From Archaeoglobaceae archaeon (lineage in GTDB: Archaea > Halobacteriota > Archaeoglobi > Archaeoglobales > Archaeoglobaceae), in the NCBI GenBank assembly GCA_046290005.1, contig JBKBUO010000002.1, positions 1 through 43,338 of the forward strand: a DNA stretch of 43,338 nucleotides, in the 5' to 3' direction. Of the stretch, positions 8,614 through 26,594 are shown in pieces. A program made the translations under genes and the position numbers. Numbering within the stretch: the first letter of the stretch is position 1; every line of letters begins with the position of its first letter. A model generated the notes under the pieces. The model did no database searches, was not told where the DNA came from, and saw nothing but the letters and a program-made list of their open reading frames with translations.

Positions 8614-8639
8614 AAAACCACTCTAAAAATTAATTTTTA

Positions 8640-11493: not shown

Positions 11494-13839
11494 ATGGGAA
11501 TAGGCCCCGGGGGTAGAACCCTTTTAGAACTTTTAGAAGAATCAGAAAAGCTTTATCGAGACACTGGGTTTTACTGGGGTTTAGGGAAGTTAGAACTCTA
11601 CGAAAAAGACCCTTTACGATGGGAGCGTGAAAGGGCACAACTCAAAGCTATAATGGTTTTAGCTCGAGAAGCTGCAACGCGAATAGCGGCTTCACCCATA
11701 ACAAGAAGCATAGGTGAAACCTGTTGGGTTCTCTACACACCTGAAGGCGATTCCGTTGTCTTATCCACTGGAATTATTGTGCACGTTCATACGATGAGTG
11801 AAGAAATAAAGTGGATGATTAGAAGAGGATACGAGGAGAATCCTGGAATAATGGACGGGGACCACTTCATTGGCAACGATCCAGCTCTTGGCAACGTGCA
11901 CACAACAGATGTCCACACTCTAACTCCTGTGTTTTATAGAGGAACTTTGATAGGGTGGATAGGTTCAGTGACGCACCAGGTGGACATAGGAGCAAATACA
12001 CCTGGACATGACATCTGCACATCTACTTCAAGATTTGAAGACGGACTATACATAGAGTGCGAATTGGTGATGAGAGATGGAAAACTTTTCCCACATTACT
12101 ATGAAAGAAGCCGAAGAGGTGTGAGAACCCCACTGTACTTCGATCTCGACGAGAAAGCAAGATTCGCTGGTAATGAGATGGCTAAAAGAATGGTATTGCA
12201 ATTTGTAGAGAAGGTGGGACTCAATTACTATATTCAACTGATAAGGGAGATCATAGAGAAGTCGAGAAGAGATTATTTGGCAAGAACAAAAGAGCGTCTC
12301 GTTCCTGGAAGATATCGAACTTTTACACTATCAGAAACTCCTTTTGTTCTGGAAGCCTGGCAACCTCACGCAAGAGATGACTGGTTACATCCATTACCGA
12401 TGGAGATTACGATCACAAGAGAAGGTCGCTGGATAGTAGATATTGAGGGTTCTACGGGTACAGGTCCATGGCCATGGAACGGAGCCATTTCACCTTTCAT
12501 GGGCGGATTTTGGGTGGTAATGACACAGATAATCGGTTATTCTGAAACTATAAACGAAGGGTTTGTCAAAGTCATAGATTTTAGAATACCCGAAAAGAGT
12601 TGGGTTGGAAATCCAGATCCCTATTTGTCGAGAAACGTCCCTTGGTATTTTCTCATACCACAGATGCAAGCTCTGTATAGAACCGTCGCGATGGGTGCAT
12701 TTGCGAGAGGGATAGTGGAAGAGGGAGCAGCAGGCTATGGGATGACCGCAGATCCTGTGCAAGGTGGGGGTGTTACAACAGGCAAAACTGGGCATCCTCC
12801 TGGGATTTACTACCCTATATCAACGTTTGAAATCGCTGGACAAGGATTAGGGGCTAATGCTATTAGAGATGGACTCGACTACGGTTATGCGATGTGGAAT
12901 CCAGAGGGGGACATAGGTGACGTTGAAGAGTGGGAAAGGATACAGGTTGGCTTTATTTACCTTGCGAGAAAAGTCAGACCAAACTCCGCAGGGTATGGTG
13001 AGAGAAGAGGAGGGAGTGGTTACGCACACGTTGCAATTTTCTTTGGAAGCAGAGACAATATACTTCAGAATCTCAACATGGGAAAAGCTTTTACAAATAC
13101 AGGACTCCACGGAGGCTATCCAACCCCTACCGTCTATACTCTGCTATCAAGGGGTGTAAAATTCGATGAATTGATTAAACAAAAGCTCCCTTATCCTATT
13201 TCTGACGACCCAGATAATCCTGAGTTCGAGAAACTCCTTTCGGGATTCTGCAGAGGAATAGAAAGGTTAGACTATGGAACTCATTTCCCTAGAGTTCTTG
13301 AAGAACACGATATCTATTACTTTAAGCAAAATGGTGGTCCAGGCTATGGCGATCCGTTGGATAGACCATTAGAGCTCTGTGAAAAAGATTTGAATGATGG
13401 AATTTATACTTCTGAGATCATGGAAAAAGTTTATGGAGTAGTTGCAAAGTACGATGGGGATAAAGGTGTATGGATCGTTGACAAAGAAGCTTCAGAAAAG
13501 CTTAGAAAGGAGAAGATCGATGAGAGACTTGGAAAAGCAAAAAATTTTGATCACTTCTATAGAGATGAGCGTGAAAAGATCATACGCTCCGACTTCATAA
13601 GACCCGTTGCAAGGATGTATCAGGAGCAAAGGGAAATATCCTCAAGGTTTTGGAGAGATTTCTTGGAGTTTTGGCAATTGCCTGAAGATTACATTCCAGA
13701 GGCTGAGGAACTCGATGAGTATCGAGAAAGAGTCCTAAGAAAACACGAGGAATTGATCGAGCGCTATAGAGAGTTTTTAGAGAAAAAAGGCTACGATTTG
13801 TCCAAGATTAGACATATAACCTTGAGAGAGAGGTGGTAG
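11494..13839 (+). CDS. Acetone carboxylase alpha-subunit-like protein (hydantoinase B / oxoprolinase family)
   Basis: 781 aa, the size and family of AcxB. It sits in an operon with a hydantoinase A-type subunit and a diagnostic acetone carboxylase gamma subunit. Confidence 0.75.
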   Translation: MGIGPGGRTLLELLEESEKLYRDTGFYWGLGKLELYEKDPLRWERERAQLKAIMVLAREAATRIAASPITRSIGETCWVLYTPEGDSVVLSTGIIVHVHTMSEEIKWMIRRGYEENPGIMDGDHFIGNDPALGNVHTTDVHTLTPVFYRGTLIGWIGSVTHQVDIGANTPGHDICTSTSRFEDGLYIECELVMRDGKLFPHYYERSRRGVRTPLYFDLDEKARFAGNEMAKRMVLQFVEKVGLNYYIQLIREIIEKSRRDYLARTKERLVPGRYRTFTLSETPFVLEAWQPHARDDWLHPLPMEITITREGRWIVDIEGSTGTGPWPWNGAISPFMGGFWVVMTQIIGYSETINEGFVKVIDFRIPEKSWVGNPDPYLSRNVPWYFLIPQMQALYRTVAMGAFARGIVEEGAAGYGMTADPVQGGGVTTGKTGHPPGIYYPISTFEIAGQGLGANAIRDGLDYGYAMWNPEGDIGDVEEWERIQVGFIYLARKVRPNSAGYGERRGGSGYAHVAIFFGSRDNILQNLNMGKAFTNTGLHGGYPTPTVYTLLSRGVKFDELIKQKLPYPISDDPDNPEFEKLLSGFCRGIERLDYGTHFPRVLEEHDIYYFKQNGGPGYGDPLDRPLELCEKDLNDGIYTSEIMEKVYGVVAKYDGDKGVWIVDKEASEKLRKEKIDERLGKAKNFDHFYRDEREKIIRSDFIRPVARMYQEQREISSRFWRDFLEFWQLPEDYIPEAEELDEYRERVLRKHEELIERYREFLEKKGYDLSKIRHITLRERW

Positions 13840-16070
13840 AATTGAAACCTGAACCTGTTGTTTTAGGTATCGACACTGGAGGAACGATGACAGATACTGT
13901 GCTTGTCGCAGAGGATGGAAGTTTTGTAATTGGAAAGGCACAAACGACTCCAGCTAACGAAGCTGAAGGTATAATAAATTCTTTGAAAAATGCAGTCGAA
14001 AAATGGGGACTTGAACTTGAAGAAGTTCTACCAGCCCTTAGAACCGTGGTTTACACGGGGACAATAATGCTCAACAGAGTCTTGGAAAGAAGAGGGTTGC
14101 ATCCTCTTGGAATAATAACGACTGCCGGATTTGAAGACACACTGCGAATGGGTAGATCAAGACAAGCTTGGAATACGCTGAGCTATGAAGAAAGATTACA
14201 TGCGATCTCACACTTTTATCCTGAGCCATTGGTTCCCAGAAACATGATAATAGGAGTAAGAGAGAGGACTTTACTAACGGGTGTCGAAATCGCTCCTCTG
14301 TATGAAAGAGATGTTGAAGAGGCTACGAGAACGTTGATAAAAAGAGGAGCTAAAGCAATAATCGTGATGTTTTTAAATTCTTGGGCGAATCCATCTCATG
14401 AAACCCAAGCTGAGCAAATTATAAAGAGAGTCTCAGCAGAGATTGGAAAAGACATACCCGTTTTCCTATCACACAAAATAGCCCCGGTTCTCGGCGAGCT
14501 TAGAAGATTGAATGCTGTTGTAATACAAGTGTATGCTTCAGAAGCTTCAAGAGAACAGTTTGCGAAGATAGAGAGCTCCTTTAGAGAGAAAAATTGTAAA
14601 GCCCCACTTTATATTCTTACGAACTATGGCACAGTCGTGCCTCCGACTTTTGAAAGGCTCATTCATACCGTAACCTCTGGACCAACAGGAGGGGCTGTGG
14701 GTGTTAAGACCCTCGCAGAGCTTTACGGATTCGAATATGTAATAGGTACTGACGTCGGAGGGACGAGCTTTGACGTAACTGCAATAATTGCTAGACAGCC
14801 AATAATGGCGCCCTATACAGTTGTTGAGAGATTTGAGGCCTCTGTGCCCTCTATAAAGACTGAGTCAATTGGAGCTGGGACGGGATCTTTTGTCAGAGTC
14901 GATCCAGTTACAAAGGCGGTGAAGATTGGGCCCCAGAGTGCTGGATATAGGATTGGGGTTTGTTGGGAAGAAGGGGGGATTGAGACTGTTACAATAAACG
15001 ATGCCATGCTCGTTTTAGGTTACTTAAATCCAGATTACTTCCTTGGTGGAGAAATAAAACTAAACAAGAAAAAAGCGGAAAAGGAATTTGAGAGACAAAT
15101 AGCGGAACCACTCGGAATAGAGTTAATTTCAGCTGCTTGGAACTCTTATACACTAGTTTCGGAGCGCATGAAACTACATTTAGAATCGATTGTGAGGTCT
15201 CTTGGACTCTCGCCTGAGAACTTCCATATAGTCTCCTATGGAGGTGGAGGTCCGAGCACAGTTGTTGCTTATACTTCTGGTCTGAAGTTTGCGGGTGTGA
15301 TGATACCTGAAATCGCTCCAGCTTTTTCCGCATGGGGTGCAACTCTGCCAGACTTAGGGATAAGAGTTGAAAAATCGGTAGAAGCTTATGTACCTCCACT
15401 TCCTGGGGTTAAGCCAATGGGTATCGCTGAAACGATAATGAAAGGAGTTGCAGAGCTTTTAGGGATAAAAATAAGAGGATTGAAAGAGATTGAGGGTCTA
15501 AGGAATCTCCTAGTTCAAAATGCTGTAAACGTATTATCTTCTGCATGGAAAGAGCTCCGTGGTTACGTCAGCGATGAGCTTAAAAGTGTAAGGGAAGAGG
15601 GGAGGGTAGAGTGGAAAGCCTCAGTTAGAATGCTTTACGCTGGAATGTTGGACGATATAGAAATCGATTCACCTTCTCTCGAAGCTGCAGAAGAACTTAT
15701 TAAAGAGCTTTGTGAGAGATTCGATGATTTATTCGAGAGAGTTTACGCGACTTCGGCAAGAAGTAGAGAGTTTGGATACACGATAACACGTGCGGTGGTT
15801 ACGGGTTATTTGAGAATGCCAAAACCAAGGATAAAGGAAGAGGCAGAAGTCGGATTAAAACCTTCGGGAGATGCTTTCAAGGGAGAAAGAGAAATCTTCT
15901 GGGAAGGTAAGTGGCATAACGCATCTATTTATGAAATGGGTAAATTAAAGGCAGGGAACTTAATCGAGGGACCTGCGGTCATCGAAGCGCCCGCTTCAAC
16001 ATTTGTAATCCCTCCGACAAACAAGGCTAAGCTTGATAAAAGGAGAATTTTCTGGCTGGAGGTGAGATGA
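13833..16070 (+). CDS. Acetone carboxylase beta-subunit-like protein (hydantoinase A family, ATP-binding)
   Basis: N-terminal VLGIDTGGTMTDTVLV and internal GTDVGGTSFDV are ASKHA-type motifs of hydantoinase A. The GTG start overlaps the upstream stop. Confidence 0.75.
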   Translation: MVELKPEPVVLGIDTGGTMTDTVLVAEDGSFVIGKAQTTPANEAEGIINSLKNAVEKWGLELEEVLPALRTVVYTGTIMLNRVLERRGLHPLGIITTAGFEDTLRMGRSRQAWNTLSYEERLHAISHFYPEPLVPRNMIIGVRERTLLTGVEIAPLYERDVEEATRTLIKRGAKAIIVMFLNSWANPSHETQAEQIIKRVSAEIGKDIPVFLSHKIAPVLGELRRLNAVVIQVYASEASREQFAKIESSFREKNCKAPLYILTNYGTVVPPTFERLIHTVTSGPTGGAVGVKTLAELYGFEYVIGTDVGGTSFDVTAIIARQPIMAPYTVVERFEASVPSIKTESIGAGTGSFVRVDPVTKAVKIGPQSAGYRIGVCWEEGGIETVTINDAMLVLGYLNPDYFLGGEIKLNKKKAEKEFERQIAEPLGIELISAAWNSYTLVSERMKLHLESIVRSLGLSPENFHIVSYGGGGPSTVVAYTSGLKFAGVMIPEIAPAFSAWGATLPDLGIRVEKSVEAYVPPLPGVKPMGIAETIMKGVAELLGIKIRGLKEIEGLRNLLVQNAVNVLSSAWKELRGYVSDELKSVREEGRVEWKASVRMLYAGMLDDIEIDSPSLEAAEELIKELCERFDDLFERVYATSARSREFGYTITRAVVTGYLRMPKPRIKEEAEVGLKPSGDAFKGEREIFWEGKWHNASIYEMGKLKAGNLIEGPAVIEAPASTFVIPPTNKAKLDKRRIFWLEVR

Positions 16071-16630
16071 TGTCAGAAGCTCTTGAAGCGAAAATAAAAG
16101 AGCTTGAGAGATTGCTCGAAAACAAGGCTGGCGAGAAAGAAATCTTTGAAGTGATAGTGAGAGAAAAAGATCCCGAGCTCAGCTTTGATGCAATCATTGA
16201 ATACTTCCAAAGAAGAGTAAGCTGGAAAGAAAGAATACTGATGCCAATCTCCAAACATCTCTTTATAGTGTGCAAGGATGGTAAACCCATAATAAAGGCT
16301 TTTTGCGGTTATGAGTTTGGAGATTACAGAGTTAATTGGAAGATCTTTGCAAAAGTTTTTATTAGAAGAAAAAAGGAGGAAATGGAGGAGATTTATCCGC
16401 ACTTTATGCACGGAGACCCGGATTGGGTTGAAATAAGGGAATACATCTGCCCGGGTTGTGGAAAACTACTTTCAGTCGAAGCAGTCCCACCTGGCTTTCC
16501 TCCGATTTTCGAATTTCTACCCGACATTGTGACTTTTTACGAGGATTGGCTTGGAAAAGAGTTTCCTTGTTCAAAAGTTGAGTTTAGAGACTTGACAGCG
16601 GAGGAAATCAGAAGGAGAATTAAAGTTTGA
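16067..16630 (+). CDS. Acetone carboxylase gamma subunit
   Basis: The motifs NWKIFAKVFIRR, EEIYPHFM, EIREYICPGCGKLLSVEAVPPGFPPIFEFLPDIVTFYEDWLG match the AcxC pattern as I remember it (NWKL..V.VR, EEIYP, IREY.CP.CG.L..VEA, PDI..FY.EWLG). There is an ATGA overlap with the beta subunit. Confidence 0.8.
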   Translation: MMSEALEAKIKELERLLENKAGEKEIFEVIVREKDPELSFDAIIEYFQRRVSWKERILMPISKHLFIVCKDGKPIIKAFCGYEFGDYRVNWKIFAKVFIRRKKEEMEEIYPHFMHGDPDWVEIREYICPGCGKLLSVEAVPPGFPPIFEFLPDIVTFYEDWLGKEFPCSKVEFRDLTAEEIRRRIKV

Positions 16631-16646
16631 ATTTAATTAATTTTTT
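16631..16646 (+). terminator. Oligo-T tract after the carboxylase operon
   Basis: atttaattaaTTTTTT lies directly after the stop at 16628-16630. Archaeal termination typically uses oligo-T runs. Confidence 0.3.
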
Positions 16647-17326
16647 GCAAAGGTTGATGACACTTTGGTGCATATAAGTGGAACTTTGGACTCTCGTAAC
16701 CAAAGTATGGGAGCTTGGGGTAGAGAGATACTGTGATTTTTATAACTCAAGCTCCTCCTCCATGCCTTTATCACTTTCTCAATTTCGAGACTACCACTTT
16801 TCTCTATCGCCTCTTTTACTCTGTAAACCTCTGAAGAGTGGTGAACACTCATGTCTGAGCTCAATCCAAGCAAGGGCTTTGAGCTTCTTTACAACTTTTT
16901 TCATTTCACTGCTCACATGTGTGACGTCTACAGTGTCGTAGAGTATCGACAACACTCCGAATCTCCTACTGTCTGTCGGTTTGTAGAGAACACCTCAATG
17001 GTTAAGACCACCAAAAAAGCCATTGGAATGTCCCTCGCTCCAGATTCCAGCTCGTTGCTTTGTTAAAGTTATCTTCTCTGTATACCAGTTTGAGAGGGCA
17101 GAGATGTATTGTGCATCTTCTCGAAGCTTCTTCAAGCATTGGTAAGGAGCCTTTCTGACCAAAACGCGATTGTTGCAACATAAACTACTTCTAATCCAAA
17201 CTCCTCTTGACCAATCTCTCATCGGTTTTCTACCCCGATATCACCATATGGTGTTTTAAATTCGCAGATTTTTCTTGCACATTCAGTCCAAGCAGTATCT
17301 CCAAGTAGCAAAGCTACCTTTTTCAT
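16637..17326 (-). pseudogene. Fragmented minus-strand gene remnant of unknown family
   Basis: Protein-like pieces lie in three frames. These are MKKVALLLGDTAWTEC... from ATG 17326, ...IWSEGHSNGFFGGLNH ending at an in-frame TGA (16995-16997) with a further 71 open codons behind it, and a 78-aa tail ending at 16637. No intact ORF spans the region. Confidence 0.3.
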
Positions 17327-17540
17327 ACCTATTGCTTTGGCAATTTCGAAGTAGGTCTTTGGCACGTTGTAGTTAAGATCTGGAAAAATTTATGAAGTAG
17401 AACTTTATTTGTCGTAGTTCTGCATAACCTTCAGCTGGTGGCGAACTTGTGATCCACAACTTTTATAAAAACCTAACCCTTTTCGTTGCTTTGAGTTCGA
17501 GGGGATGCATACTGATATTTTGATTAAATCATACTCAAAA

Positions 17541-17602
17541 ATGTGCATTATCAACCTTAAATTTTTAATATGTGCTCATATAAATTGGTTATTGGTGATA
17601 TT
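17541..17602 (+). promoter_or_regulatory. Promoter cassette P2: TATA plus a TGCTCAT box
   Basis: ttaaatttttaatatgtgctcat at 17557-17579. An upstream related box atgtgcat at 17541-17548 lies 31 nt from the proximal box. GGTGA precedes ATG 17603. Confidence 0.5.
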
Positions 17603-19267
17603 ATGCAGTTTGTGATAAAAGAAGAGGGCGAGCTAAATGGATGGCCCACGTATGCTTGGGCTGTAAAAAGATTGCCGAAAGAATTGGCTAAAACTGAGAC
17701 TGTAAAGGAAGTGCTTGAAACTGCATCTGAAATTCGTGGGGATAGAACTTACGCAATATACTCAGATACAGGAGAAAGCATGAGCTATTATGAGTTGAAC
17801 AGAGATGCGAACAAGATAGCGAACTCTCTTATGGAGCTTGGAGTTCAAAAAGGAGATAGAGTGGCGCTCTATTTGAGAAATTCTCTCGATTATCTCCGAT
17901 GCATTTATGCATGTTCAAAGATTGGTGCAATTGAGGTGCCGGTTAATTGGTTCTACCGAGAGTTCGATGCAAAACATGTTATAAAGAACAGTGAGGCGAG
18001 CGTTTGCATCGTAGAGGAAGATTTACTTCCGATTGTTGAGACCATAAGAGGTGATTTGCCTAATCTAAAGCATATTGCGGTTCGCGGAGAGGCAAAGGAG
18101 TATCAAAAACTTGAAGACTTAAAGGGAAGTTCGAAAAATCCTGAGACAAAGATCACAGCAGAGGATCCGATGGCGATAATATACACTTCTGGAACAACTG
18201 GGCTACCTAAAGGCGCCATCTTGTCAAATAAATCATATGTGTTGTCAGCTAAAGCGATCGCTTTGTGGATGGTCGATGAAAATGCGAACGACTACACTGG
18301 GTTACCGCTCTTCCACATAAATGCTCAGATATACTCAAGCCTTGGGATGATGATCGCAGGCGGAGTTTTGACACTCAGGAGTCTGTTCTCTGCGTCGATG
18401 TTTTGGGAAGACATAACTCGCTATAAATGCACGCATTTTAACCTTCTCGGCTCGCTTGCGAACATCCTGTATTCCTTACCACCTTCAGAATACGAAAAAG
18501 ACAATCCAGCAAAATATGTCATAATTGGTGGTATGCCAATAGAAATCTGGAAGAAATTCGAAGAGAGGTTCGGAGTAGAGGTTCTCGAAGGCTATAGCAT
18601 GACTGAAGACCCACTTCCGTGTCTCAATCCACCCGGGAAATACAAAAAGATAGGAAGCTTTGGCGTTCCAGTTTTCCCAGACTTGGGACACGATGCAAAG
18701 ATCGTTGACGATGCTGGCAACGAAGTTCCGTTTGGCAGCGTTGGCGAACTTGTGAGGAAGAATCCAGCGCAGATGATTGGTTATTACAAAGCACCTGAAA
18801 AGACTGCTGAAGTTGTGAAAGATGGTTGGCTTTTTAGCGGTGACTTCGCTAAAATGGACAACGAAGGGTATCTGTATTTCGTTGATAGGAAGAAGTTCAT
18901 CGTCCGCCGTAGTGGAGAGAACATAGCAAGCTGGGAGATCGAAGCTGTGCTTAAGAGTCATCCAAAAGTCGCAGACGCAGCAGTGATTCCTGTCCCAGAT
19001 CTGATTAGGGGTGAGGAGATAAAGGCATTTGTTATGCCGAAGTATGGAGAAGAGCTGAAAGAAGAAGAGTTGATCGAGTTTATGGCTGGAAAGGTTGCTT
19101 ATTTCAAGGTTCCAAGATATATAGAGCTCGTTGATTTCTTCCCTTACACGCCAACTGGTAGAGTTAAGAAATGGGAGTTGAAAGAAAAAGAGAAAGAAAG
19201 GGCTGACCATGGCTGGGACAGAGACAAGATGATTCCAGATTGGAGAACAAGATACAAGGCGAGGTGA
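17603..19267 (+). CDS. AMP-forming acyl-CoA synthetase
   Basis: AMP-binding motif IIYTSGTTGLPKGA and C-terminal PRYIELVDFFPYTPTGRVKK. I prefer ATG 17603 (GGTGA RBS) over the track start at 17570, which lies inside the promoter box. Confidence 0.85.
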   Translation: MQFVIKEEGELNGWPTYAWAVKRLPKELAKTETVKEVLETASEIRGDRTYAIYSDTGESMSYYELNRDANKIANSLMELGVQKGDRVALYLRNSLDYLRCIYACSKIGAIEVPVNWFYREFDAKHVIKNSEASVCIVEEDLLPIVETIRGDLPNLKHIAVRGEAKEYQKLEDLKGSSKNPETKITAEDPMAIIYTSGTTGLPKGAILSNKSYVLSAKAIALWMVDENANDYTGLPLFHINAQIYSSLGMMIAGGVLTLRSLFSASMFWEDITRYKCTHFNLLGSLANILYSLPPSEYEKDNPAKYVIIGGMPIEIWKKFEERFGVEVLEGYSMTEDPLPCLNPPGKYKKIGSFGVPVFPDLGHDAKIVDDAGNEVPFGSVGELVRKNPAQMIGYYKAPEKTAEVVKDGWLFSGDFAKMDNEGYLYFVDRKKFIVRRSGENIASWEIEAVLKSHPKVADAAVIPVPDLIRGEEIKAFVMPKYGEELKEEELIEFMAGKVAYFKVPRYIELVDFFPYTPTGRVKKWELKEKEKERADHGWDRDKMIPDWRTRYKAR

Positions 19268-20343
19268 GTTATCTGCGTGTTGCAATCATAGGGATTGGAT
19301 TTTCAGAGTTCGGCATACTCAACGAACCCTTCTACAACACTTCGTTTTTGGCAGCAAGGGAAGCGATAGGAGATGCGTCCATAGAAAGGGGAGAAATAGA
19401 CAGCTTTGTCCTTGGAGGCTATGATAGTCTCGGCGTAGGGAGAACAATAGCGAACATGTATACAGCCCCGGCTGCAGGAGCTTATCTCAGACACGAGATC
19501 AGAGTAACCGATGATTCAGCATTTGCGCTTGCTTTAGCGTTTATGCGAGTAAAGAGTGGTTTGAGCGATATATGCATGGTCTTAGGATTTGGGAAAAGCT
19601 CTGAAACTCCAGTTGAGCTTGTTGAACTGCAGAGTCTTGATCCATTCTTTTCACGCCCTTTAAACTTGTCTCTTCAGATGAGCTTTGCAATGCAGAGCTT
19701 TTGTTATCGCAGGAAGTATGGAATTGATGATGAAAAGATTGCGGAATGCGTTGCTAAAGACACTGAGAACGGCTCTAAAAATCCAAGGGCTTTTTTAAGA
19801 AAAAAGATAAGCGTTGAGGACGTTTTGAACTCAAAAATGGCGGTTTATCCGTTGAGAGAACTCGAAATTGCCAAGTGGTGCGATGGAAGTGTGGCGTTGA
19901 TTTTAGCAAGCGAGACAATCGCAAAAAGGATTTGTGAGAGACCAGTTTGGATAAAAGGCGTTGGTTGGAGCAACTCTGGCTATTATTTCGATGAATTAGA
20001 TTCGCTTCCGGCAACGAAACTCTCTGCAGATATGGCTTTCAAGATGGCAGGAGTTGAAAGAAGAGAAGTTGAAGCGGTTGAAGCAATGGACCTCGTAAGT
20101 GATCACCAGCCAATGATTCTCGAAGCCTTAGGTTTTGCAGAAAAAGGAAAGGGTCTTGATGTGAATGTAGAAGTTAACAAATCAGGCGGTGCTATTTGCA
20201 CGAATGTCTACGGTTCCACTGGGCTCTTTCTCATTGCGAATCTCATTGAAAGGATAAGGAGCGGTGAAATCGGCATCGGCGTAGCGCAGGCTATGAGTGG
20301 TTACGCTGGGCAGAGGGCTTGTGTTTCCGTTTTTGGTGTGTAG
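19264..20343 (+). CDS. Thiolase-fold (SCP-x type) protein, subunit type A, without the canonical catalytic Cys/His
   Basis: RVAIIGIGFSEFG at the N-terminus, CDGSVALILASE, VNKSGGAICTNVYGSTG. The nucleophile loop reads RVTDDSAFALALAFMRVKSG, with no Cys. I propose the GTG start at 19264, which overlaps the upstream TGA. Confidence 0.75.
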   Translation: MSYLRVAIIGIGFSEFGILNEPFYNTSFLAAREAIGDASIERGEIDSFVLGGYDSLGVGRTIANMYTAPAAGAYLRHEIRVTDDSAFALALAFMRVKSGLSDICMVLGFGKSSETPVELVELQSLDPFFSRPLNLSLQMSFAMQSFCYRRKYGIDDEKIAECVAKDTENGSKNPRAFLRKKISVEDVLNSKMAVYPLRELEIAKWCDGSVALILASETIAKRICERPVWIKGVGWSNSGYYFDELDSLPATKLSADMAFKMAGVERREVEAVEAMDLVSDHQPMILEALGFAEKGKGLDVNVEVNKSGGAICTNVYGSTGLFLIANLIERIRSGEIGIGVAQAMSGYAGQRACVSVFGV

Positions 20344-20345
20344 AG

Positions 20346-21503
20346 ATGAAGAGAGTTGCGATTGTTGGTTGTGGGCAAACGGAGTTCAAAACCAAGCACA
20401 AGAAAACGCATCCCGAAATCGTATACGAAGCTGTAAAGAGAGCCCTTGACCATGCTGGACTCGACATAAAAGACATTGAAGCTGTTGTTTATGGCTGCAT
20501 GGATCCATTTGATGGAATTTATCGCCCTGAACTGTGGGATTCCACCGCTACTGGTATTTTCAAGCCGATGATGAAGATAAGCACAGGAGGGACCACAGGA
20601 CTAACGACTGCGCTCGCTGCTTACGAAACAGTAGCAAGCGGTCTTTTCGATGTTGTAATGGCTGTTTGCGTTCAACGTGTTGGCGAGTGCGCAGATGCGC
20701 AATCCGTGCTAAACACCGCAGTAGATCCAATATACGAACGTTTCTCAGGTGTCGGAGCAATTACAGCATCGGCGTTTCAGGCTACCGCTTATATGCATAA
20801 GTACAACGCTACCGAAGAAGATTTAGCCTATGTTAGCGTAAAAGATCACGAGAATGCTCTGAAAAATCCATATGCTCATATAAAAATGAGAGTAAGCATA
20901 GAAGATGTTTTGAAAAGTCCAGTTATATGCTCTCCGCTGAAGTTGCTCGAATGTTGTCCAAGAAGCGATGGCGCCGCTACTATTATTTTTGCAAGTGAAG
21001 AAGTTGCAAAAAAACTGAGAGATAATCCCGCATGGATTCTTGGAGAGACAACGATAAGCGACAGCTATTACTTGGGAGTTCGCCCAGACTTCAGCTTTTG
21101 GGATTCCCTAAGCATTGCGGGAAGAAGACTCTATAGAGCAGTTGGGATTGATAATTCAATGAAAGATTTTGATGTTGCAGAACTATATTCTGCTTTTACA
21201 ATTCAAGAAGTCTTAGAACTTGAAGCCCTCGGGTTTGCAAAAGAGGGACAGGGCAAGGATTTTGCTAAGGAAGGGATAACAGCTGTTGATGGCGAAATGC
21301 CAACGAATCCATCGGGAGGAGTTCTCTGCACAAACCCCATAGGAGCAAGCGGGCTTGTAAGACTAATAGAGGCTTCGCTTCAAGTCATGAGAGAGGCGAG
21401 CAACCAAGTCGAAAATGCTGAAGTTGCACTGGCTCATGCTTGGGGAGGGACCTTGCAGTTCCATACTCTTGTGGTCGTTTCTTCAAAAAAGAGGTTGAGG
21501 TGA
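20346..21503 (+). CDS. Thiolase-fold (SCP-x type) protein, subunit type B, without the canonical catalytic Cys/His
   Basis: MKRVAIVGCGQTEF, CCPRSDGAATIIFASEE, NPSGGVLCTNPIGASG. The nucleophile loop reads ISTGGTTGLTTALAAYETVASG, with Gly in place of Cys. Confidence 0.8.
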   Translation: MKRVAIVGCGQTEFKTKHKKTHPEIVYEAVKRALDHAGLDIKDIEAVVYGCMDPFDGIYRPELWDSTATGIFKPMMKISTGGTTGLTTALAAYETVASGLFDVVMAVCVQRVGECADAQSVLNTAVDPIYERFSGVGAITASAFQATAYMHKYNATEEDLAYVSVKDHENALKNPYAHIKMRVSIEDVLKSPVICSPLKLLECCPRSDGAATIIFASEEVAKKLRDNPAWILGETTISDSYYLGVRPDFSFWDSLSIAGRRLYRAVGIDNSMKDFDVAELYSAFTIQEVLELEALGFAKEGQGKDFAKEGITAVDGEMPTNPSGGVLCTNPIGASGLVRLIEASLQVMREASNQVENAEVALAHAWGGTLQFHTLVVVSSKKRLR

Positions 21504-21964
21504 GAAAAGTGAGCGATGTTATGGAGTTTGAGGTCTGGTGGAAGATTCCATTTAGGCATTACGCCGGAATACATGCTACAAAATTTTTTGAAGGATTAAA
21601 AAATAAAAAGATTCTCGGAGTAAAATGCCCTAAGTGTGAGAGGGTCCTTGTTCCGCCAAGGGCATTTTGCGAGCGATGCTTTGTTGAGACAAACGAATGG
21701 GTCGAGGTTAAGGATGAGGGAGTTGTGGTGACACTGAGCGTAACTTACATGAAATTCACAGGTCTTCCTGATCCGCCATACGCAGTTGGGATTGTGAAGT
21801 TAGATGGCGCTGATACCGGGATTCTCTGTTACCTTGGTGGGATAGACTTAAGCGATTGGAAAAAAGTGCATGAAGTCTTCAAACCTGGAACCAGAGTCAA
21901 AGCAGTCTGGAAAGATATTCCTGAGGGCAAGATAACGGATATTCTCTACTTTAAGGTGGTGTGA
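21500..21964 (+). CDS. DUF35 protein (zinc ribbon plus OB fold), a partner of thiolase-fold enzymes
   Basis: A CPKC...CERC rubredoxin-like ribbon followed by an OB-fold-like C-terminus. The start is ambiguous: GTG 21500 overlapping the stop, GTG 21509, or ATG 21521. Confidence 0.8.
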   Translation: MRKVSDVMEFEVWWKIPFRHYAGIHATKFFEGLKNKKILGVKCPKCERVLVPPRAFCERCFVETNEWVEVKDEGVVVTLSVTYMKFTGLPDPPYAVGIVKLDGADTGILCYLGGIDLSDWKKVHEVFKPGTRVKAVWKDIPEGKITDILYFKVV

Positions 21965-22407
21965 TGGAGGTTCTATATTTTGAGGAATTCGAAGTGGGAA
22001 GGGAATTCGAAACTGCTGGAAGAACGATTACAGAAGCGGACATAGTTAACTTTGCGGGTATTACTGGTGATTGGAATCAACTTCATACAGACGCTGAATT
22101 CGCAAAAAATACGATCTTTGGTCAGAGAATAGCACATGGAGCACTTGTATTTTCCATAATGACAGGACTACTTGTGAGACTTGGTTTCATCGAAAAAACG
22201 ATCATCGCATTTTATGGAATCGACAAACTGCGTTTCACGAACCCAGTTTTCATAGGTGACACAATAAAGGCGGTTGCCAAGGTTACTGAGAAAGAGGATA
22301 GGAGAGCATACGGAGTCGTTACTATTGAGTCAAGAGTCGTTAAACAAACTGGCGATGTTGTGCTCAAGTGCGTTTTAAAGGTGGCGGTTAAAAAGAAGGG
22401 TGAGTAG
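21964..22407 (+). CDS. MaoC-like (R)-specific enoyl-CoA hydratase (hot-dog fold)
   Basis: The hydratase 2 motif FAGITGDWNQLHTDAEFA. The start overlaps the DUF35 stop (TGATG). Confidence 0.85.
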   Translation: MEVLYFEEFEVGREFETAGRTITEADIVNFAGITGDWNQLHTDAEFAKNTIFGQRIAHGALVFSIMTGLLVRLGFIEKTIIAFYGIDKLRFTNPVFIGDTIKAVAKVTEKEDRRAYGVVTIESRVVKQTGDVVLKCVLKVAVKKKGE

Positions 22408-22408
22408 G

Positions 22409-23650
22409 ATGGAATTCGAGTTTACCGAGGAGCAAAAGATGATTGCAAACTCAGCGAAAGAGATCGCAGAGGACTTCCCGCCAGAGTATTGGAGAGAAAA
22501 GGATGCAAAAGGTGAGTTTGCGGAGGAGTTTTTCAAGGCAATTGCAAAGGCTGGATTTTTTGGAATCGTGATTCCAGAAGAATACGGTGGCTCCGGCTAT
22601 GGAGTCACCGAGCTTTTGATTGCGATGGAAGAATTGGCTGCGAATGGCTGTGGAGCAGGAGGAGTTTGGTATTTCGTTCTAACAGAGGTTTTTGGAGCAT
22701 TGCCCATAGTCAGATATGGGAGCGAAGCTCAGAAAGAGAAATACTTACCAAAGATAGCAAGAGGAGAGCTCGAGTTCTGTATGGCTCTCACTGAGCCAGA
22801 TGCGGGAACGAACACGTTGGCTATAAAAACGAGAGCTGTAAAAGACGGCGATGAGTGGGTGATCAACGGGAACAAGATATGGATAAGCGGTGTAGATAGG
22901 GCTAAGGGGATGCTACTCGTAACGAGGACGACACCTTTGGGAAGTGCACCGAGGAAAAGCCTAGGTTTAACACTTTTCCTCGTCGATCTACCGAGCAAGG
23001 CGGTTAAGATAAATCCGATTCCGAAACACGGTATAAACTTTTCTAAGAGCTGTGAAGTCAGCATAAGTGCTCTAAGGGTTAAAGATGATGCAATCCTTGG
23101 CGAGAAGGATCTTGGATGGTATCTGTTGCTCGACGTCCTAAACCCCGAGAGAATGTCTGCAGCAGCTGGAGCAATTGGAGGAGCAACTCTTGCAATAAGA
23201 AAGGCAGTAGAATATTCGAAGCAGAGAAAAGTCTTTGCGGATCCGATTGGTAGCTACCAAGGACTTCAGTTCCCAATTGCAGAAGCTTTCTCTGGACTAA
23301 AGTGCGCAGAGTTGATGATGTTTAAAGCTGCGTGGCTTTACGACAACAAGTTCAAAAGCGAGGACGTGAAAGATCCCAAGAAGAGGTTTGAACTTGCACC
23401 GATTTTCAAAGAAATAGGAGATTGCTCGAATCTTTCAAAAGTTGTTGCGGTGGAGAACGCAATCAAAGCGGTTTACTGGGCTATGCAAGTCTTTGGTGGC
23501 TATGGCTATGCAAAGGAATACGATGTGGAGAGATGGTGGCGGGAAGTGAACTTGCTCAGACTTGCTCCTGTGACACAGCAGATGGCTCTGAACTACATCG
23601 CTGAGCACATCCTCGGGATGCCGAGAAGTTACAGAACAGGCTATGAGTGA
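22409..23650 (+). CDS. Acyl-CoA dehydrogenase with the catalytic Glu apparently at the IVD/LCAD-type position
   Basis: N-terminal FEFTEEQKM, ALTEPDAGTN, and the C-terminal FGGYGYAKEYDVERWWRE. LDVLNPERMSAAAG carries a Glu before the conserved Arg. The usual YEGT Glu site reads RLAPVT. Confidence 0.85.
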   Translation: MEFEFTEEQKMIANSAKEIAEDFPPEYWREKDAKGEFAEEFFKAIAKAGFFGIVIPEEYGGSGYGVTELLIAMEELAANGCGAGGVWYFVLTEVFGALPIVRYGSEAQKEKYLPKIARGELEFCMALTEPDAGTNTLAIKTRAVKDGDEWVINGNKIWISGVDRAKGMLLVTRTTPLGSAPRKSLGLTLFLVDLPSKAVKINPIPKHGINFSKSCEVSISALRVKDDAILGEKDLGWYLLLDVLNPERMSAAAGAIGGATLAIRKAVEYSKQRKVFADPIGSYQGLQFPIAEAFSGLKCAELMMFKAAWLYDNKFKSEDVKDPKKRFELAPIFKEIGDCSNLSKVVAVENAIKAVYWAMQVFGGYGYAKEYDVERWWREVNLLRLAPVTQQMALNYIAEHILGMPRSYRTGYE

Positions 23651-25481
23651 AATCAAAAAAGTTGTAAAAGGGAAAGAGTTAGAAACAATGAAGAGAGAGA
23701 GCTTAAACGAGATGCTTTGGAGCACAGCAAAGGAGCATCCAGAAAAACCATGCGTGAGCTTTTACGATGATGGCAAACTGAAATCGATCAGCTATATAGA
23801 CTTCTGGAACCTTGTAGAAAGAATTTCAAAAGGTCTAATCGAGCTCGGTTTTAAAAAAGGCGATAGGGTGGCGATTTTGAGTTCTACGAGATACGAGTGG
23901 GAGCTTTTTGACTTCGCAGTAATGTGCACTGGAGCCATAGTTGTGCCGATCCATACTACTCTTAGCGGGGACATCGTTCGTTATATATTGAAAGACTCGG
24001 GATCGAAGCTAATAGTGGTTGAAAACAAGGAGCTTCGGGAAAAAATTGGGGATTACGAGATAGAAAAGATAGAGATCGAAGATAAAAGCTCAGTTGAAGA
24101 GTTGATGAAACTGGGGGAAGAAAGCGAAGTGGACTTCGAGAAGTTATGGAAATCTGTGAAACCCGAAGACATTTCGAGCATCGTTTACACCTCAGGAACA
24201 ACAGGGGAGCCTAAAGGAGCAATTCTCACCCATTGGAACTGGAGATTTAACGCGATGTCTGTTATGTCGATAATACCCTTTTACCCAGGTGAGCCCTATA
24301 TCTGCTATCTACCGCTTAGCCATGTTTTTCAAAGGCTGGTTTTTTATGCGGGAATTAGCAGGGGAGCAAATGCCGTCTTTACCCCTCCTGCAAGATTTTT
24401 AGATACACTGAGATCTGTCAAGCCAGTTGCCTTCGTTACCGTGCCCAGAATCCTCGAAAGAGTTAACAAGGGACTTTTGGAGAACGTTGAAAAGCAGAGT
24501 GAACTGAAGAAGAGGATCTTTTACTGGTCGAGAAAAGTTGCAATAGAGTGTGGTGAGAAAATAAGCAAAGGCGAAAGATTTGGACTTGGACTGAGGATAA
24601 GAAGATTTTTCGCGGACAAGCTCGTTTATAGCAAAATAAGAAATGCTCTTGGATTGCAAAACATTCGCTTCATTTGCTCTGCAGCCGCTGAACTGCGAAA
24701 AGATCTTGCTTACATGTTTAACGGTATGGGCATTCCTGTGATAGAAGGCTATGGGATGACAGAAACCGCAGCTCCAACGAATCTGAATCCATTGAAAAGG
24801 TTTAAACCCGGCACTGTTGGTCCACCGATACCTGGAATAATGGAAGCGATTGCAGAAGATGGGGAAATCCTTGTAAAAGGAGATAACGTCATGCTTGGCT
24901 ATTGGAACAAACCAGACGAAACTGCAAGGTGCTTCACAGAAGACGGTTGGTTCAAAACAGGCGACCTTGGCGATTTTGATAAGGATGGCTACCTGATCTT
25001 CCTTGGTAGAAAGAAACACATCATCGCGCTCGACACAGGTAAAAAGGTTTCGCCTTCACGCATAGAGGAACTGTTGCTCCAAAGCCCCTACGTAAACGAC
25101 GCCTTACTGGTTGGTGACGGGAGACCATACATCGTAGCACTTATTGTTCCTAATTTTGCACTTCTTCTCGATTTGATCGAAAAAATGGGAATTGGTTACG
25201 ATAAGAGCAAGATCGTGGTTTCGAAGAGCGTCTCTGGAGACATGGAGATAAATGAGATTCCCAAGGACATTTTAGATCATCCAAAGGTCGTGGAGTTCTA
25301 TTCGAAGGTCGTCGAAGAGTTGAACCAGAAACTATCGGAGGAGGAGAAGATTAGAAAGTTCAAACTGCTCAACAGGACGTTTACTATAGAGAGAAACGAG
25401 TTGACGCCCACGCTAAAGAAGAGAACGCACGTTATCGTTGATCGCTACAAAGATCTAATCGATTCTCTTTATTCACGATAG
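23643..25481 (+). CDS. Long-chain-type AMP-forming acyl-CoA ligase
   Basis: IVYTSGTTGEPKGA, GYGMTETA, FKTGDLG, and the C-terminal NELTPTLKKR typical of FAA1/FadD15-like ligases. The start could instead be ATG 23688. Confidence 0.85.
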   Translation: MSEIKKVVKGKELETMKRESLNEMLWSTAKEHPEKPCVSFYDDGKLKSISYIDFWNLVERISKGLIELGFKKGDRVAILSSTRYEWELFDFAVMCTGAIVVPIHTTLSGDIVRYILKDSGSKLIVVENKELREKIGDYEIEKIEIEDKSSVEELMKLGEESEVDFEKLWKSVKPEDISSIVYTSGTTGEPKGAILTHWNWRFNAMSVMSIIPFYPGEPYICYLPLSHVFQRLVFYAGISRGANAVFTPPARFLDTLRSVKPVAFVTVPRILERVNKGLLENVEKQSELKKRIFYWSRKVAIECGEKISKGERFGLGLRIRRFFADKLVYSKIRNALGLQNIRFICSAAAELRKDLAYMFNGMGIPVIEGYGMTETAAPTNLNPLKRFKPGTVGPPIPGIMEAIAEDGEILVKGDNVMLGYWNKPDETARCFTEDGWFKTGDLGDFDKDGYLIFLGRKKHIIALDTGKKVSPSRIEELLLQSPYVNDALLVGDGRPYIVALIVPNFALLLDLIEKMGIGYDKSKIVVSKSVSGDMEINEIPKDILDHPKVVEFYSKVVEELNQKLSEEEKIRKFKLLNRTFTIERNELTPTLKKRTHVIVDRYKDLIDSLYSR

Positions 25482-25522: not shown

Positions 25523-26080
25523 ATGGTTAAGCGGAGAATACAGACCACGATCAGCGATGAAGCCTACAAAATAATCGAAAGGCACAAGGAGAAGTATAGT
25601 GGCATGAATGCAGTTATCGAAGAAGCTTTAAGGCTTTTAGATAGAAAAGAAGATATTTTAAGCGAAGACGATCTTTTGCTCTTGAAGCTCATACGCGACC
25701 TAGACTTTACAGGTTGCGGAAGAACGCAGTATCTCTATTTAATCCTAGGGGATATAGACAAGGCTGTCAAGGAAAGTTTAATGGAAACAGCGGTCGAGTG
25801 GTTTTTGAAGAAACCTTTCGTGGAAATAAGTCTTGAAGAGTTTCTTGAGACTGTGAAAAGAGGTTGGACGATTTTAAATAGGGCAGATTACATAGAGATC
25901 ACAAGAGAAAAGGACTCGATAGTGTTTTTCTGTGAGCACACGATGCGAAGAAAAGAAGTGAGTGAATTTCTCGCGAACCATATCCTCTGGATATACGAGA
26001 AATACTATCGTAGCAAATGGGATTTTTCTCTGAGCGTAACAACTAACAGCTTCACAATCAAGTTCACAACAAAGCGTTGA
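25523..26080 (+). CDS. Putative ribbon-helix-helix DNA-binding protein with an unknown C-terminal domain
   Basis: The N-terminal KRRIQTTISDEAYKIIERHKEKYSGMNAVIEEALRLL has a beta-strand / helix / helix pattern like CopG/Arc/MetJ. The remainder has no family I recognise. Confidence 0.4.
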   Translation: MVKRRIQTTISDEAYKIIERHKEKYSGMNAVIEEALRLLDRKEDILSEDDLLLLKLIRDLDFTGCGRTQYLYLILGDIDKAVKESLMETAVEWFLKKPFVEISLEEFLETVKRGWTILNRADYIEITREKDSIVFFCEHTMRRKEVSEFLANHILWIYEKYYRSKWDFSLSVTTNSFTIKFTTKR

Positions 26081-26087: not shown

Positions 26088-26147
26088 TGCTCAAGCTCCG
26101 AGGTTAAATTTTAATATTTGCTCATTCTATTTATTTTCGGTGGTGAA
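26088..26147 (+). promoter_or_regulatory. Promoter cassette P3: TATA plus a TGCTCAT box
   Basis: ttaaattttaatatttgctcat at 26104-26125. A second box tgctcaa at 26088-26094 lies 31 nt upstream. GGTGGTGA precedes ATG 26148. Confidence 0.5.
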
Positions 26148-26594
26148 ATGGTAACGAGGTATGAGGGCATACCATTTGTTGCTCGGTTCCAATGGAGCGT
26201 TGGGGAGCTTTTTGACGAATTTCTCAGTGGTCTAAGGAATGCAAAGCTCATGGCTTCGAAATGCGGTTGTGGTTACACCGTATTGCCCCCGAGGATAAGA
26301 TGCCCAAAGTGCCATGCAAAGATTGGTAAGGAGAACTTGATTGAGCTCAGCGGAAAAGGAATAGTAGAGACTTACACAAAAGTTTTCTTCAAGTTCGATG
26401 GTAGCGGAAACGAAATCTGGCTTGATAAACCAGAGATATTAGCCATGGTCAGATTTGAAGGTGCGAATTCTGTTCTCGTCTTTCCTTACTTGGATGCCGA
26501 AATCTCTGAAGGACTTGAAGTGGAAATCGTATGGAGAGAGGAGAGGAGCGGTAGCGTTTCAGACATCTTGGGCGTTAGGAAGGTGAGAAGATGA
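26148..26594 (+). CDS. DUF35 protein (zinc ribbon plus OB fold)
   Basis: A CGCG...CPKC ribbon. I prefer ATG 26148 over the TTG at 26118, which lies inside the promoter box. Confidence 0.8.
   Translation: MVTRYEGIPFVARFQWSVGELFDEFLSGLRNAKLMASKCGCGYTVLPPRIRCPKCHAKIGKENLIELSGKGIVETYTKVFFKFDGSGNEIWLDKPEILAMVRFEGANSVLVFPYLDAEISEGLEVEIVWREERSGSVSDILGVRKVRR

Follow-up and report, generated by a model that had tools for sequence, protein, structure and literature searches.

A 43,338-nucleotide stretch of DNA from an Archaeoglobaceae archaeon (contig JBKBUO010000002.1 of assembly GCA_046290005.1; called the window throughout) encodes two adjacent thiolase-fold proteins, here named A and B, followed by a DUF35 protein. 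The residues needed for covalent Claisen thiolysis are missing in both thiolase-fold subunits, and on the alignments presented below a non-thiolytic function is well founded. The putative A/B/DUF35 complex is widely conserved and of a known kind, and it is biochemically uncharacterised. We propose, with about an even chance of being right, that B may be the catalytic subunit of a retro-aldolase stapled by DUF35, with A as its degenerate partner and a substrate that is probably beta-branched.

The open reading frames (ORFs) of A, B and the DUF35 protein were confirmed on the forward strand as part of a seven-gene coupled array in the order ligase-A-B-DUF35-MaoC-ACAD-ligase (ACAD, acyl-CoA dehydrogenase):

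17570-19267, forward strand: acyl-CoA synthetase (AMP-binding), first gene of the array (Pfam AMP-binding, 1.8e-74, and AMP-binding_C)
19264-20343, forward strand: subunit A, a 359-aa thiolase-fold protein, catalytically degenerate and probably the non-catalytic partner of B (NCBIfam PRK06066, AlphaFold2, Foldseek)
20346-21503, forward strand: subunit B, a 385-aa thiolase-fold protein, presumed catalytic (alignment, conservation, AlphaFold2)
21500-21964, forward strand: DUF35 protein, 154 aa, presumed clamp or scaffold of A/B (Pfam zf-ChsH2 and OB_ChsH2_C)
21961-22407, forward strand: MaoC-type (R)-specific enoyl-CoA hydratase (Pfam MaoC_dehydratas, 1.2e-35)
22400-23650, forward strand: acyl-CoA dehydrogenase (Pfam Acyl-CoA_dh N, M and C domains)
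23643-25481, forward strand: second AMP-forming acyl-CoA ligase, last gene of the array (Pfam AMP-binding, 1e-69)

The GTG start of A (19264-19266) overlaps the TGA stop (19265-19267) of the acyl-CoA synthetase gene that precedes it. The TAG stop of A (20341-20343) and the ATG start of B (20346) are separated by 2 nt; B and the DUF35 gene are joined by GTGA at 21500-21503. The MaoC gene starts at GTG 21961 or ATG 21964, either of which overlaps the DUF35 stop, and the ACAD gene at GTG 22400 or ATG 22409, around the MaoC stop. The overlap between ACAD and the second AMP ligase is ATGAGTGA at 23643-23650. An earlier reading of the sequence by a model (the original prediction) had described A, B and DUF35 as chained by stop/start overlaps, and its coordinates and junctions were exact; the MaoC hydratase and ACAD that it placed after the trio were identified by Pfam and are likewise coupled by overlaps. 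The MaoC protein carries G-D-W-N-Q-L-H, which by eye fits the hydratase-2 Asp/His motif. In the survey of related loci described below (L numbers), the ligase 5' of A is also found in the Archaeoglobi relatives L006, L007, L010 and L014, and the ligase that ends the array is also present in the closest relative, L007. No gene for a 3-hydroxyacyl-CoA dehydrogenase (HADH) or short-chain dehydrogenase/reductase was found in the A/B operon. The presence of ACAD, MaoC and DUF35 in one operon lacking HADH fits the logic of an aldolytic route.

A and B both gave full-length NCBIfam matches to thiolase-domain families, below every curated cut-off. The best match of A was PRK06066 (182 bits, full length), and against PRK07937 it scored 140 bits where the cut-off is 419; B matched PRK08313 best (331 bits versus a cut-off of 514). 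Both proteins have the thiolase alpha-beta-alpha-beta-alpha fold over both halves, in AlphaFold2 models with a predicted local distance difference test score of 89.2 and a predicted template modelling (TM) score of 0.91 for A, and of 88.8 and 0.92 for B. Foldseek matched them to archaeal DUF35-dependent thiolases at TM scores of 0.83-0.92 (A 0.91 to 6et9, B 0.88-0.92 to archaeal thiolases), the nearest structures being P. furiosus 7yvy, M. thermolithotrophicus 6esq/6et9 and S. tokodaii ST0096 (4yzo), while the aldolases Ltp2 and Sal took lower ranks. NCBIfam, AlphaFold2 and Foldseek therefore agree with the predicted thiolase fold of A and B. The possibility that A is a diverged 3-hydroxy-3-methylglutaryl-CoA (HMG-CoA) synthase was rejected, because it has no Pfam match to that enzyme and clusters with SCP2-type proteins.

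The third ORF had been predicted to be a four-Cys zinc-ribbon/OB DUF35 protein. Both Pfam domains score above threshold, zf-ChsH2 (PF12172) at 5.4e-10 and 39.3 bits against a gathering score of 23.2 and OB_ChsH2_C (PF01796) at 7e-13 and 48.7 bits against 27.1, and the four cysteines were located in C43-x2-C46 (CPKC, 43-46) and C57-x2-C60 (CERC, 57-60).

The catalytic positions were read from a MAFFT L-INS-i alignment of A, B, their paralogs in the window, family members and six solved proteins (7yvy, 6esq, 7pxp, 6hsj, 4yzo and 4u4e). Sequences of the solved relatives were rebuilt from HMMER alignments, and residue alignments with Ltp2 (6ok1) and Sal (9myr) were obtained through a PDB query with the rebuilt 4u4e sequence. 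The nucleophilic Cys, which lies in AAC[AS]SG in 7yvy, 6esq, 7pxp and 6hsj, is replaced by Gly82 in B and Ser85 in A. The motif that reads HDCF in 6esq and 6hsj and HDAF in 7yvy and 7pxp is Y281-S-A-F in B and M275-D-L-V in A, and the GHP His (oxyanion hole 1), a His in true thiolases, is Asn330 in B and Asn314 in A. In B, the three codons lie at 20589-20591 (Gly82), 21186-21188 (Tyr281) and 21333-21335 (Asn330). Profile, pairwise and multiple alignments agree on Gly/Ser, Tyr/Met and Asn at the three catalytic positions, and in this rigorous alignment with six solved relatives the Cys/His/Cys triad is absent from both subunits.

The alignment bears out much of what the original prediction had read by eye, namely Gly for Cys in B, Asn for the GHP His in both proteins and, with all three catalytic positions substituted, the unsuitability of either subunit for textbook Claisen thiolysis. 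The Thr/Asp that it placed at the Cys position of A is corrected to Ser85, which is preceded by D83-D84, and it had overlooked HDCF/HDAF, the motif relevant to this clade. Its further criterion, a missing C-terminal CxG Cys, is not diagnostic: that Cys is also missing from the solved true thiolases of the clade whose alignment reaches the loop (QNIGGT in 7yvy, HVTGG in BbsB).

In the alignment, Tyr281 of B stands opposite the first residue of HDCF, the His, where Ltp2 and Sal have their catalytic-base Tyr. In the paper on Sal, the first residue of the motif is that Tyr in both Ltp2 (YDHF) and Sal (YDCY), and its replacement by Phe abolishes Sal activity. Relative to Y-D-[HC]-[FY], B keeps the Tyr, with Asp changed to Ser/Asn and His/Cys to Ala/Pro. 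At the position of the GHP His, Ltp2 has its second catalytic Tyr (Tyr344), Sal has Gln352 and B has Asn330; B resembles Sal in three respects: Gly replaces the Cys, the motif begins with Tyr, and an amide side chain takes the place of the GHP His.

The Cys of 'GGVLC-TN' in B was considered as an alternative nucleophile and rejected, the residue being Ala in B2, a paralog of B encoded in the window, and Ser in other members. Two of the solved relatives, both uncharacterised, also lack a nucleophilic Cys. ST0096 (4yzo) has Ser, with H-D-M-A and a retained GHP, and 4u4e from Sphaerobacter thermophilus, which clusters with Ltp2 and Sal, has Y-D-S-F and a retained T-H-P. Both may be unrecognised non-thiolytic enzymes.

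Conservation was assessed over 85 loci from archaea and bacteria, 80 from a one-genome-per-species scan and the remainder fetched earlier, in which ORFs were called, labelled by phmmer and MAFFT and inspected with flanks of ±6 kb. B-type proteins have Gly at the Cys position in 85/85 cases, the motif Tyr in 82/83 and Asn at the His position in 83/83. An A-type paralog adjoins B in every locus whose flank is present, apparent exceptions being contig ends or fragmented genes, and a DUF35 gene lies near the pair in 76 of the 85. This conservation places the loss of the catalytic residues far from chance. An AMP ligase is found near the trio in 42/85 loci. Archaeoglobi keep the operon as [AF_0136-family protein]-ligase-A-B-DUF35-MaoC-ACAD, and in L008 the order is ligase-ACAD-A-B-DUF35.

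The two subunits have evolved differently. B has 3739 relatives at E <= 1e-10, with identities of 71-85% in Archaeoglobi (the nearest, at 85%, in metagenome-assembled genomes (MAGs) of Archaeoglobaceae), 52-60% in Dehalococcoidia, Lokiarchaeia, Freyrarchaeum, Thermoplasmatota and others, and 37-42% in distant members from Actinomycetota, Pseudomonadota and Myxococcota. In a set of 31 proteins of the B family there is no variation at G82, Y281 or F284, and conservation of N330 is at least 90%. Far fewer relatives of A are detectable (53-90% identity in Archaeoglobi, 30-40% elsewhere), and A orthologs evolve at roughly double the rate of B orthologs. The invariant residues of 25 A-family members are mostly Gly, Pro and Ala, together with an N-x-S-G-G loop; none falls at the three catalytic positions, and the Cys-equivalent position varies between G, A and S, with one V. 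That the catalytic loops of B stay near-invariant at 37-85% identity argues for a working pocket, while the variable catalytic loops and faster divergence of A suggest that it is probably a degenerate, non-catalytic partner of B.

Despite the drift at its catalytic positions, the A family keeps an acidic residue or pair just before the Cys equivalent, [ST]-[DE]-D in archaeal and Chloroflexi members and E-M-D in the bacterial type (D83-D84 in the window, 19510-19515); these residues might have a structural role, belong to the subunit interface or take part in a second activity. Gene order departs from the usual one in L004 (Lokiarchaeia, GCA_041862095.1), where the trio at 8328-11167 runs A-DUF35-B. 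Its neighbours there are FAD-binding_4/CCG-domain oxidoreductases, not ligase, MaoC or ACAD, and 8 kb from the trio there is a canonical thiolase (ASACATG, HDCF, GHP) accompanied by a DUF35 of its own.

A neighbour-joining tree of 48 sequences (Kimura distance, 200 bootstraps) recovered a B clade (0.835), an A clade (0.75) and a sister relationship between the two (0.885), with mean within-clade distances of 0.88 for B and 1.39 for A. Sal, 4u4e and Ltp2 formed a separate clade with support of 1.0, and A and B fell outside it. The sister clades indicate that the heteropair derives from an old duplication and was inherited as a unit, and on this tree it does not branch from within the Ltp2/Sal aldolases. 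In phmmer comparisons B scored 1.5e-55 to an archaeal thiolase, 4.7e-34 to Ltp2 and 1e-18 to Sal.

The original prediction had taken Ltp2 as its model. This choice does not hold, since B lacks the second Tyr of Ltp2, lies outside the Ltp2/Sal clade and is closer to archaeal thiolases; the nearer precedent for A/B is the Ltp3-Ltp4 heteropair of actinobacterial sterol catabolism. The secondary literature speaks of Ltp3-Ltp4 as aldol lyases, and in one review the pair is a 'heteromeric aldol-lyase' proposed to cleave the C24-C25 bond of C24-branched sterol side chains once desaturation, branch carboxylation and hydration have taken place. The gene order in M. tuberculosis is Rv3521 (conserved hypothetical), ltp4, ltp3.

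Members of the A and B families from Actinomycetota, Pseudomonadota and Myxococcota have the gene order DUF35-DUF35-A-B and uniform signatures (B-type HTAGSVG / YVPF / SNPI; A-type EMD[GA]AWA / [HY]APF). In the actinobacterial clusters the neighbouring genes are paired ACADs and a ChsH2-like MaoC-DUF35 fusion, and the A-type and B-type proteins match PRK07937 'lipid-transfer protein' (549 bits) and PRK08313 (674 bits), respectively. Window B (STGGTTG / YSAF / TNPI) shares with the bacterial proteins the B-type signature of Gly, Y-x-[AP]-F and [ST]-N-P-I, and the bacterial pairs fall within the same A and B clades (bootstrap 0.75-0.885). The window's own B and A score below the PRK08313 and PRK07937 cut-offs, and the paralog B2 scores above that of PRK08313. 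On the strength of the 'lipid-transfer protein' name, the 353-aa size, the Rv3521-ltp4-ltp3 order and the steroid-type neighbours, the bacterial DUF35-DUF35-A-B loci are probably Ltp4/Ltp3. A homolog search with the actinobacterial A-type protein returned environmental sequences only, with no named Mycobacterium Ltp4 match.

From the genes, fold, substitutions, conservation, synteny and phylogeny described above, we infer a heteromer with retro-aldol chemistry, a catalytic role for Tyr281 and a type of substrate. A and B would replace the two identical protomers of a thiolase-type dimer, and the zinc-ribbon/OB protein would clamp the pair. The ligase would make the CoA ester, ACAD would convert it to the 2-enoyl-CoA and MaoC would hydrate this to the (R)-3-hydroxyacyl-CoA, with no dehydrogenase step. 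With Gly82 in the place of the nucleophilic Cys, B would form no acyl-enzyme; Tyr281 would take the proton of the 3-hydroxyl, and the C2-C3 bond would break, releasing a carbonyl product together with the acetyl-CoA (or propionyl-CoA) enolate. The retained loops of B (Asn330 and the H-A-W-G-G loop) would stabilise the enolate, which would then be protonated, and A would make up the dimer, perhaps with a part in shaping the acyl pocket. The Ltp3-Ltp4 analogy makes a substrate with a branch at C3 probable. Hydration of such a substrate would give a tertiary alcohol, which is not oxidisable, and cleavage would give a ketone.

A heteromeric retro-aldolase had been suggested by the original prediction. 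The non-thiolytic part of that suggestion and the co-operonic DUF35, MaoC and ACAD are upheld, and the near-invariance of Tyr at the Ltp2/Sal catalytic-base position strengthens the aldolase reading of B; the two subunits are not equivalent, only B looking catalytic, and aldolase activity itself is proposed by analogy. Several observations weigh against the proposal. B is closer in phylogeny to true thiolases than to Ltp2/Sal, so its Tyr may be convergent or serve another role. It has neither of the two known proton donors, Tyr344 of Ltp2 and Cys304 of Sal (Ala283 stands in place of the latter), and the Asp that comes second in the motif is replaced by Ser/Asn. Of the 85 loci, only 11 have MaoC close to the trio and 34 have ACAD, and in some genomes, such as L005, the trio stands alone. 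As for the precedent, the assignment of Ltp3-Ltp4 as an aldol-lyase comes from genetics (knock-outs) only, and the bacterial loci are likened to Ltp4/Ltp3 through the family name, protein size, gene order and neighbours listed above.

A carboxylase upstream of the array and the base type of the operon's ACAD both fit a C3-branched substrate, if weakly. The carboxylase lies about 2.6 kb upstream of the trio:

11494-16630, forward strand: acetone/acetophenone-carboxylase-family enzyme, with Hydantoinase_B (781 aa), Hydantoinase_A (745 aa) and gamma (187 aa) subunits (Pfam)

Its Pfam matches (Hydantoinase_B 6e-73, Hydantoinase_A 9e-66, Acetone_carb_G 1.9e-36) identify the family, and its scores are far below the equivalog cut-offs for acetophenone carboxylase and caprolactamase (ApcC 363 bits versus 1500). 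Same-strand homologs lie beside or near the trio in L034 (7782-11806), L024 (1-1459; a Thermoproteota MAG) and L055 (1211-5103; a Thermoleophilaceae MAG). In L034, from Caldisphaera, the order is A-B-DUF35-ACAD-HydB-HydA, with identities of 68.6% and 63% to the window subunits. The link is absent in the closest Archaeoglobi relatives (L007, L006 and L002). The carboxylase-family enzyme may belong to the same pathway as the trio. The operon ACAD has Glu at the position used by isovaleryl-CoA and long-chain acyl-CoA dehydrogenases (IVD/LCAD; 'LNPER') and Pro at the Glu376 position of the medium-chain enzyme (MCAD; 'RLAPVT'). This arrangement is common to all Archaeoglobi orthologs, and most trio-adjacent ACADs are without the MCAD-type Glu.

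A more specific and rather speculative reading, to which we attach a low probability, is that A/B/DUF35 could be the lyase for tertiary 3-hydroxy-3-alkylacyl-CoAs in an oxygen-independent bypass of the beta-methyl block in isoprenoid- or isovalerate-type acids. Its partners would be the ACAD, the MaoC hydratase, the two ligases and the acetone-carboxylase-family enzyme. Dehydrogenation and hydration to the tertiary alcohol would be followed by retro-aldol release of acetyl-CoA and a methyl ketone, then by ATP-dependent carboxylation of the ketone to a 3-oxoacid and its re-activation by the second ligase. This bypass leans on the proximity of the trio to carboxylase genes in three lineages, on the trio-linked ACADs, most of which have the IVD/LCAD-type base, and on the beta-branched substrate of Ltp3-Ltp4; a literature search for a link between carboxylase, retro-aldol cleavage and isoprenoids found nothing relevant. 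To our knowledge, such a route has so far been known only from metabolite studies of isoprenoid ketone degradation. If true, the bypass would give genes to it and point to a way in which archaeal lipid chains are recycled by anaerobic archaea and Chloroflexi.

Short dicarboxylates (mesaconyl- or citramalyl-type CoA esters) and aryl-substituted acids are possible substrates as well. Two adjacent family III CoA-transferase genes lie at 6004-8613 on the reverse strand of the window, and in NCBIfam they are best like formyl-CoA and succinyl-CoA:mesaconate transferases, below cut-off. Pairs of such genes recur near the trio (L002 14542-17186; L039-L042), and a family III CoA-transferase is found near it in 11/85 loci. 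These pairs hint at dicarboxylates or at substrates activated by CoA transfer.

Four other explanations were weighed. Given that all canonical catalytic residues are gone in both subunits, A/B/DUF35 might be a non-catalytic scaffold, a pseudoenzyme that binds acyl-CoA and organises or regulates MaoC and ACAD, with C-C cleavage taking place elsewhere, for example by a separate thiolase acting after the FadB-like enzyme encoded at 31242-33164. Scaffolding is real for such assemblies, as the thiolase/DUF35 core of Sulfolobus acidocaldarius physically recruits a reductase and a MaoC dehydratase, and the window does contain that FadB-type gene, which combines HADH and enoyl-CoA hydratase (ECH). We nevertheless consider a scaffold unlikely. 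The replaced residues of B are near-invariant in the catalytic loops over a wide phylogeny, whereas a dead pocket should drift as that of A has; moreover, the trio often occurs without MaoC or ACAD, and no canonical Cys-containing thiolase that could perform the cleavage is encoded anywhere in the window.

The window order of carboxylase, ligase and A-B-DUF35 mirrors that of acetophenone catabolism, which runs carboxylase, CoA ligase, thiolase. This resemblance raises the question of whether the pair carries out a Cys-independent reaction on a 3-oxoacyl-CoA. In such a route the carboxylase would make a 3-oxoacid from a ketone and the ligase would activate it, after which A/B would either cleave it without an acyl-enzyme, by direct attack of CoA, or decarboxylate it, as TbSLP does with malonyl-CoA. 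The same-strand hydantoinase-family genes by the trio in L034, L024 and L055 speak for this route, as does TbSLP, a Cys-less relative that decarboxylates malonyl-CoA, albeit at a low rate. No thiolase-fold enzyme is known to perform thiolysis without the nucleophilic Cys, however, and the His residues for decarboxylation or enolate chemistry are missing too. The ACAD and MaoC of the operon would be superfluous, and the closest relatives lack the carboxylase linkage. A 3-oxoacyl-CoA substrate is on balance decidedly unlikely.

Aldol reactions are reversible, and archaeal thiolase/DUF35 complexes, to which B is most similar, condense in mevalonate and fatty-acid synthesis. The pair might then work in the synthetic direction, joining acetyl-CoA to an aldehyde or ketone to form a 3-hydroxyacyl-CoA that MaoC dehydrates and the ACAD-family enzyme reduces, in carbonyl assimilation or chain building. 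Only a slim chance is left to this explanation by the two acid-activating AMP ligases and the ACAD-type rather than enoyl reductase-type gene, which point to catabolism, and by the catabolic precedents of Ltp3-Ltp4 and Ltp2/Sal. Finally, that A and B are ordinary 3-ketoacyl-CoA thiolases whose catalytic residues were misplaced by hand alignment, as the database labels 'acetyl-CoA C-acetyltransferase' and 'thiolase family protein' would have it, is scarcely credible, since all alignment types place substitutions at the three catalytic positions and no alternative conserved Cys lies nearby.

A second system of the same kind, a ligase and a small protein lie downstream of the array:

25523-26080, forward strand: 185-aa AF_0136-family protein, between the two thiolase-like systems (phmmer)
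26118-29474, forward strand: second paralogous Cys-less system, DUF35-A2-B2-DUF35 (Pfam and NCBIfam)
26118-26594, forward strand: first DUF35 gene of the second system
26591-27730, forward strand: A2
27727-28968, forward strand: B2
28962-29474, forward strand: second DUF35 gene of the second system
29524-31179, forward strand: ligase 3' of the second system

A2 (379 aa) has Gly82, T-E-R-F and Asp326 at the catalytic positions, and B2 (413 aa) has Gly83, Y307-S-A-F and Asn356; B2 passes NCBIfam PRK08313 (518.5 versus a cut-off of 514). ATGA overlaps occur at 26591-26594 and 27727-27730, and the presence of two DUF35 genes, one on either side, brings to mind the bacterial DUF35-DUF35-A-B arrangement. 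The 185-aa protein matches, at 242-277 bits in phmmer, the AF_0136_N/AF_0136_C proteins encoded just upstream of the operon in L002, L006 and L014; it had no match in local copies of Pfam or NCBIfam. Its N-terminus is ribbon-helix-helix-like by eye, and it may be a regulator of the operon.

Five AMP-forming ligases are encoded within about 19 kb, at 17570-19267, 23643-25481 and 29524-31179 on the forward strand and at 33171-34868 and 34892-36544 on the reverse strand. Within the same interval lies the FadB-like HADH-ECH fusion, with its dehydrogenase domain first (31242-33164, reverse strand). A gap of about 940 bp (16631-17569) separates the carboxylase gamma subunit from the first ligase. 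Its sole ORF encodes 87 aa rich in Ser and Leu (16678-16941), and the gap could contain a promoter or regulatory region of the operon.

Thousands of genes of this type, carried by Archaeoglobi, Asgard archaea, Bathyarchaeia, Thermoproteota, Dehalococcoidia and Actinomycetota, are annotated 'acetyl-CoA acetyltransferase' or 'thiolase family protein'. Metabolic reconstructions in which their products close beta-oxidation or open the mevalonate pathway are wrong if those products are incapable of thiolysis. The heteropair appears as an old and conserved design, in which the catalytic paralog is constrained, its partner drifts and DUF35 serves as the clamp. The literature searches yielded no archaeal member of the Cys-less heteropair that has been characterised, in line with what the original prediction had stated for archaea, and no biochemical or structural characterisation of the heteropair architecture from any domain of life. 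With Ltp3-Ltp4, known from knock-outs, as the only precedent, a thermostable archaeal version is a good target for a first structure and assay. Such a complex could reveal a third retro-aldol solution on the thiolase scaffold and show how anaerobes handle beta-branched acids.

Among known systems, the ketosynthase-chain length factor pair of type II polyketide synthases offers an analogy only: it is a thiolase-fold heterodimer of a catalytic subunit and a diverged paralog without the active-site Cys. It belongs to another branch of the superfamily and depends on acyl carrier protein, and its catalytic subunit keeps the Cys that both window subunits lack. BbsAB (7pxp) and PhlACB (5m3k) resemble the window trio as DUF35-containing, multi-subunit thiolase-fold assemblies encoded by adjacent genes. 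The PhlA-PhlC-PhlB operon likewise places two thiolase-fold proteins before DUF35; PhlC keeps its catalytic Cys and PhlA is a protein like ketoacyl synthase III or HMG-CoA synthase. BbsB, for its part, keeps the Cys and both His, and neither assembly pairs two SCP2-type thiolase paralogs.

The archaeal DUF35-dependent thiolases are the closest solved relatives (phmmer 1.5e-55 and 7.5e-42, TM scores up to 0.92), and in them too DUF35 mediates assembly. The archaeal operon for HMG-CoA synthase, thiolase and DUF35 has the order partner enzyme, thiolase-fold protein, DUF35, as in the window. These enzymes differ in that they keep the Cys, HD[CA]F and GHP and are true Claisen thiolases, and in that they are partnered by HMG-CoA synthase or a reductase/dehydratase, where B has a degenerate thiolase paralog. 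Published work on archaeal thiolase/DUF35 complexes concerns such Cys-containing enzymes.

The steroid side-chain aldolases Ltp2-ChsH2 (6ok1) and Sal-Shy (9myr) share with B the SCP2-thiolase fold, the absence of a nucleophilic Cys, a Tyr as first residue of the motif and a DUF35 partner. They act after a MaoC hydratase, and in the window free-standing DUF35 and MaoC genes lie directly 3' of B. In contrast to the proposed A/B heteromer, they are homodimers whose own DUF35 is fused to the hydratase, and they use a second catalytic residue, a Tyr in Ltp2 and a Cys in Sal. Ltp3-Ltp4 differs from the archaeal trio in layout, with two DUF35 genes before A in the bacterial loci and one after B in the archaeal ones, and in the motif of A (H/Y-A-P-F versus M/C-D-L-T); phytosterol degradation would also be an unlikely task for an anaerobic thermophilic archaeon. 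What the two have in common is the architecture, in which two adjacent paralogous genes for Cys-less SCP2-type thiolase-fold proteins stand beside DUF35, in association with ACAD and MaoC.

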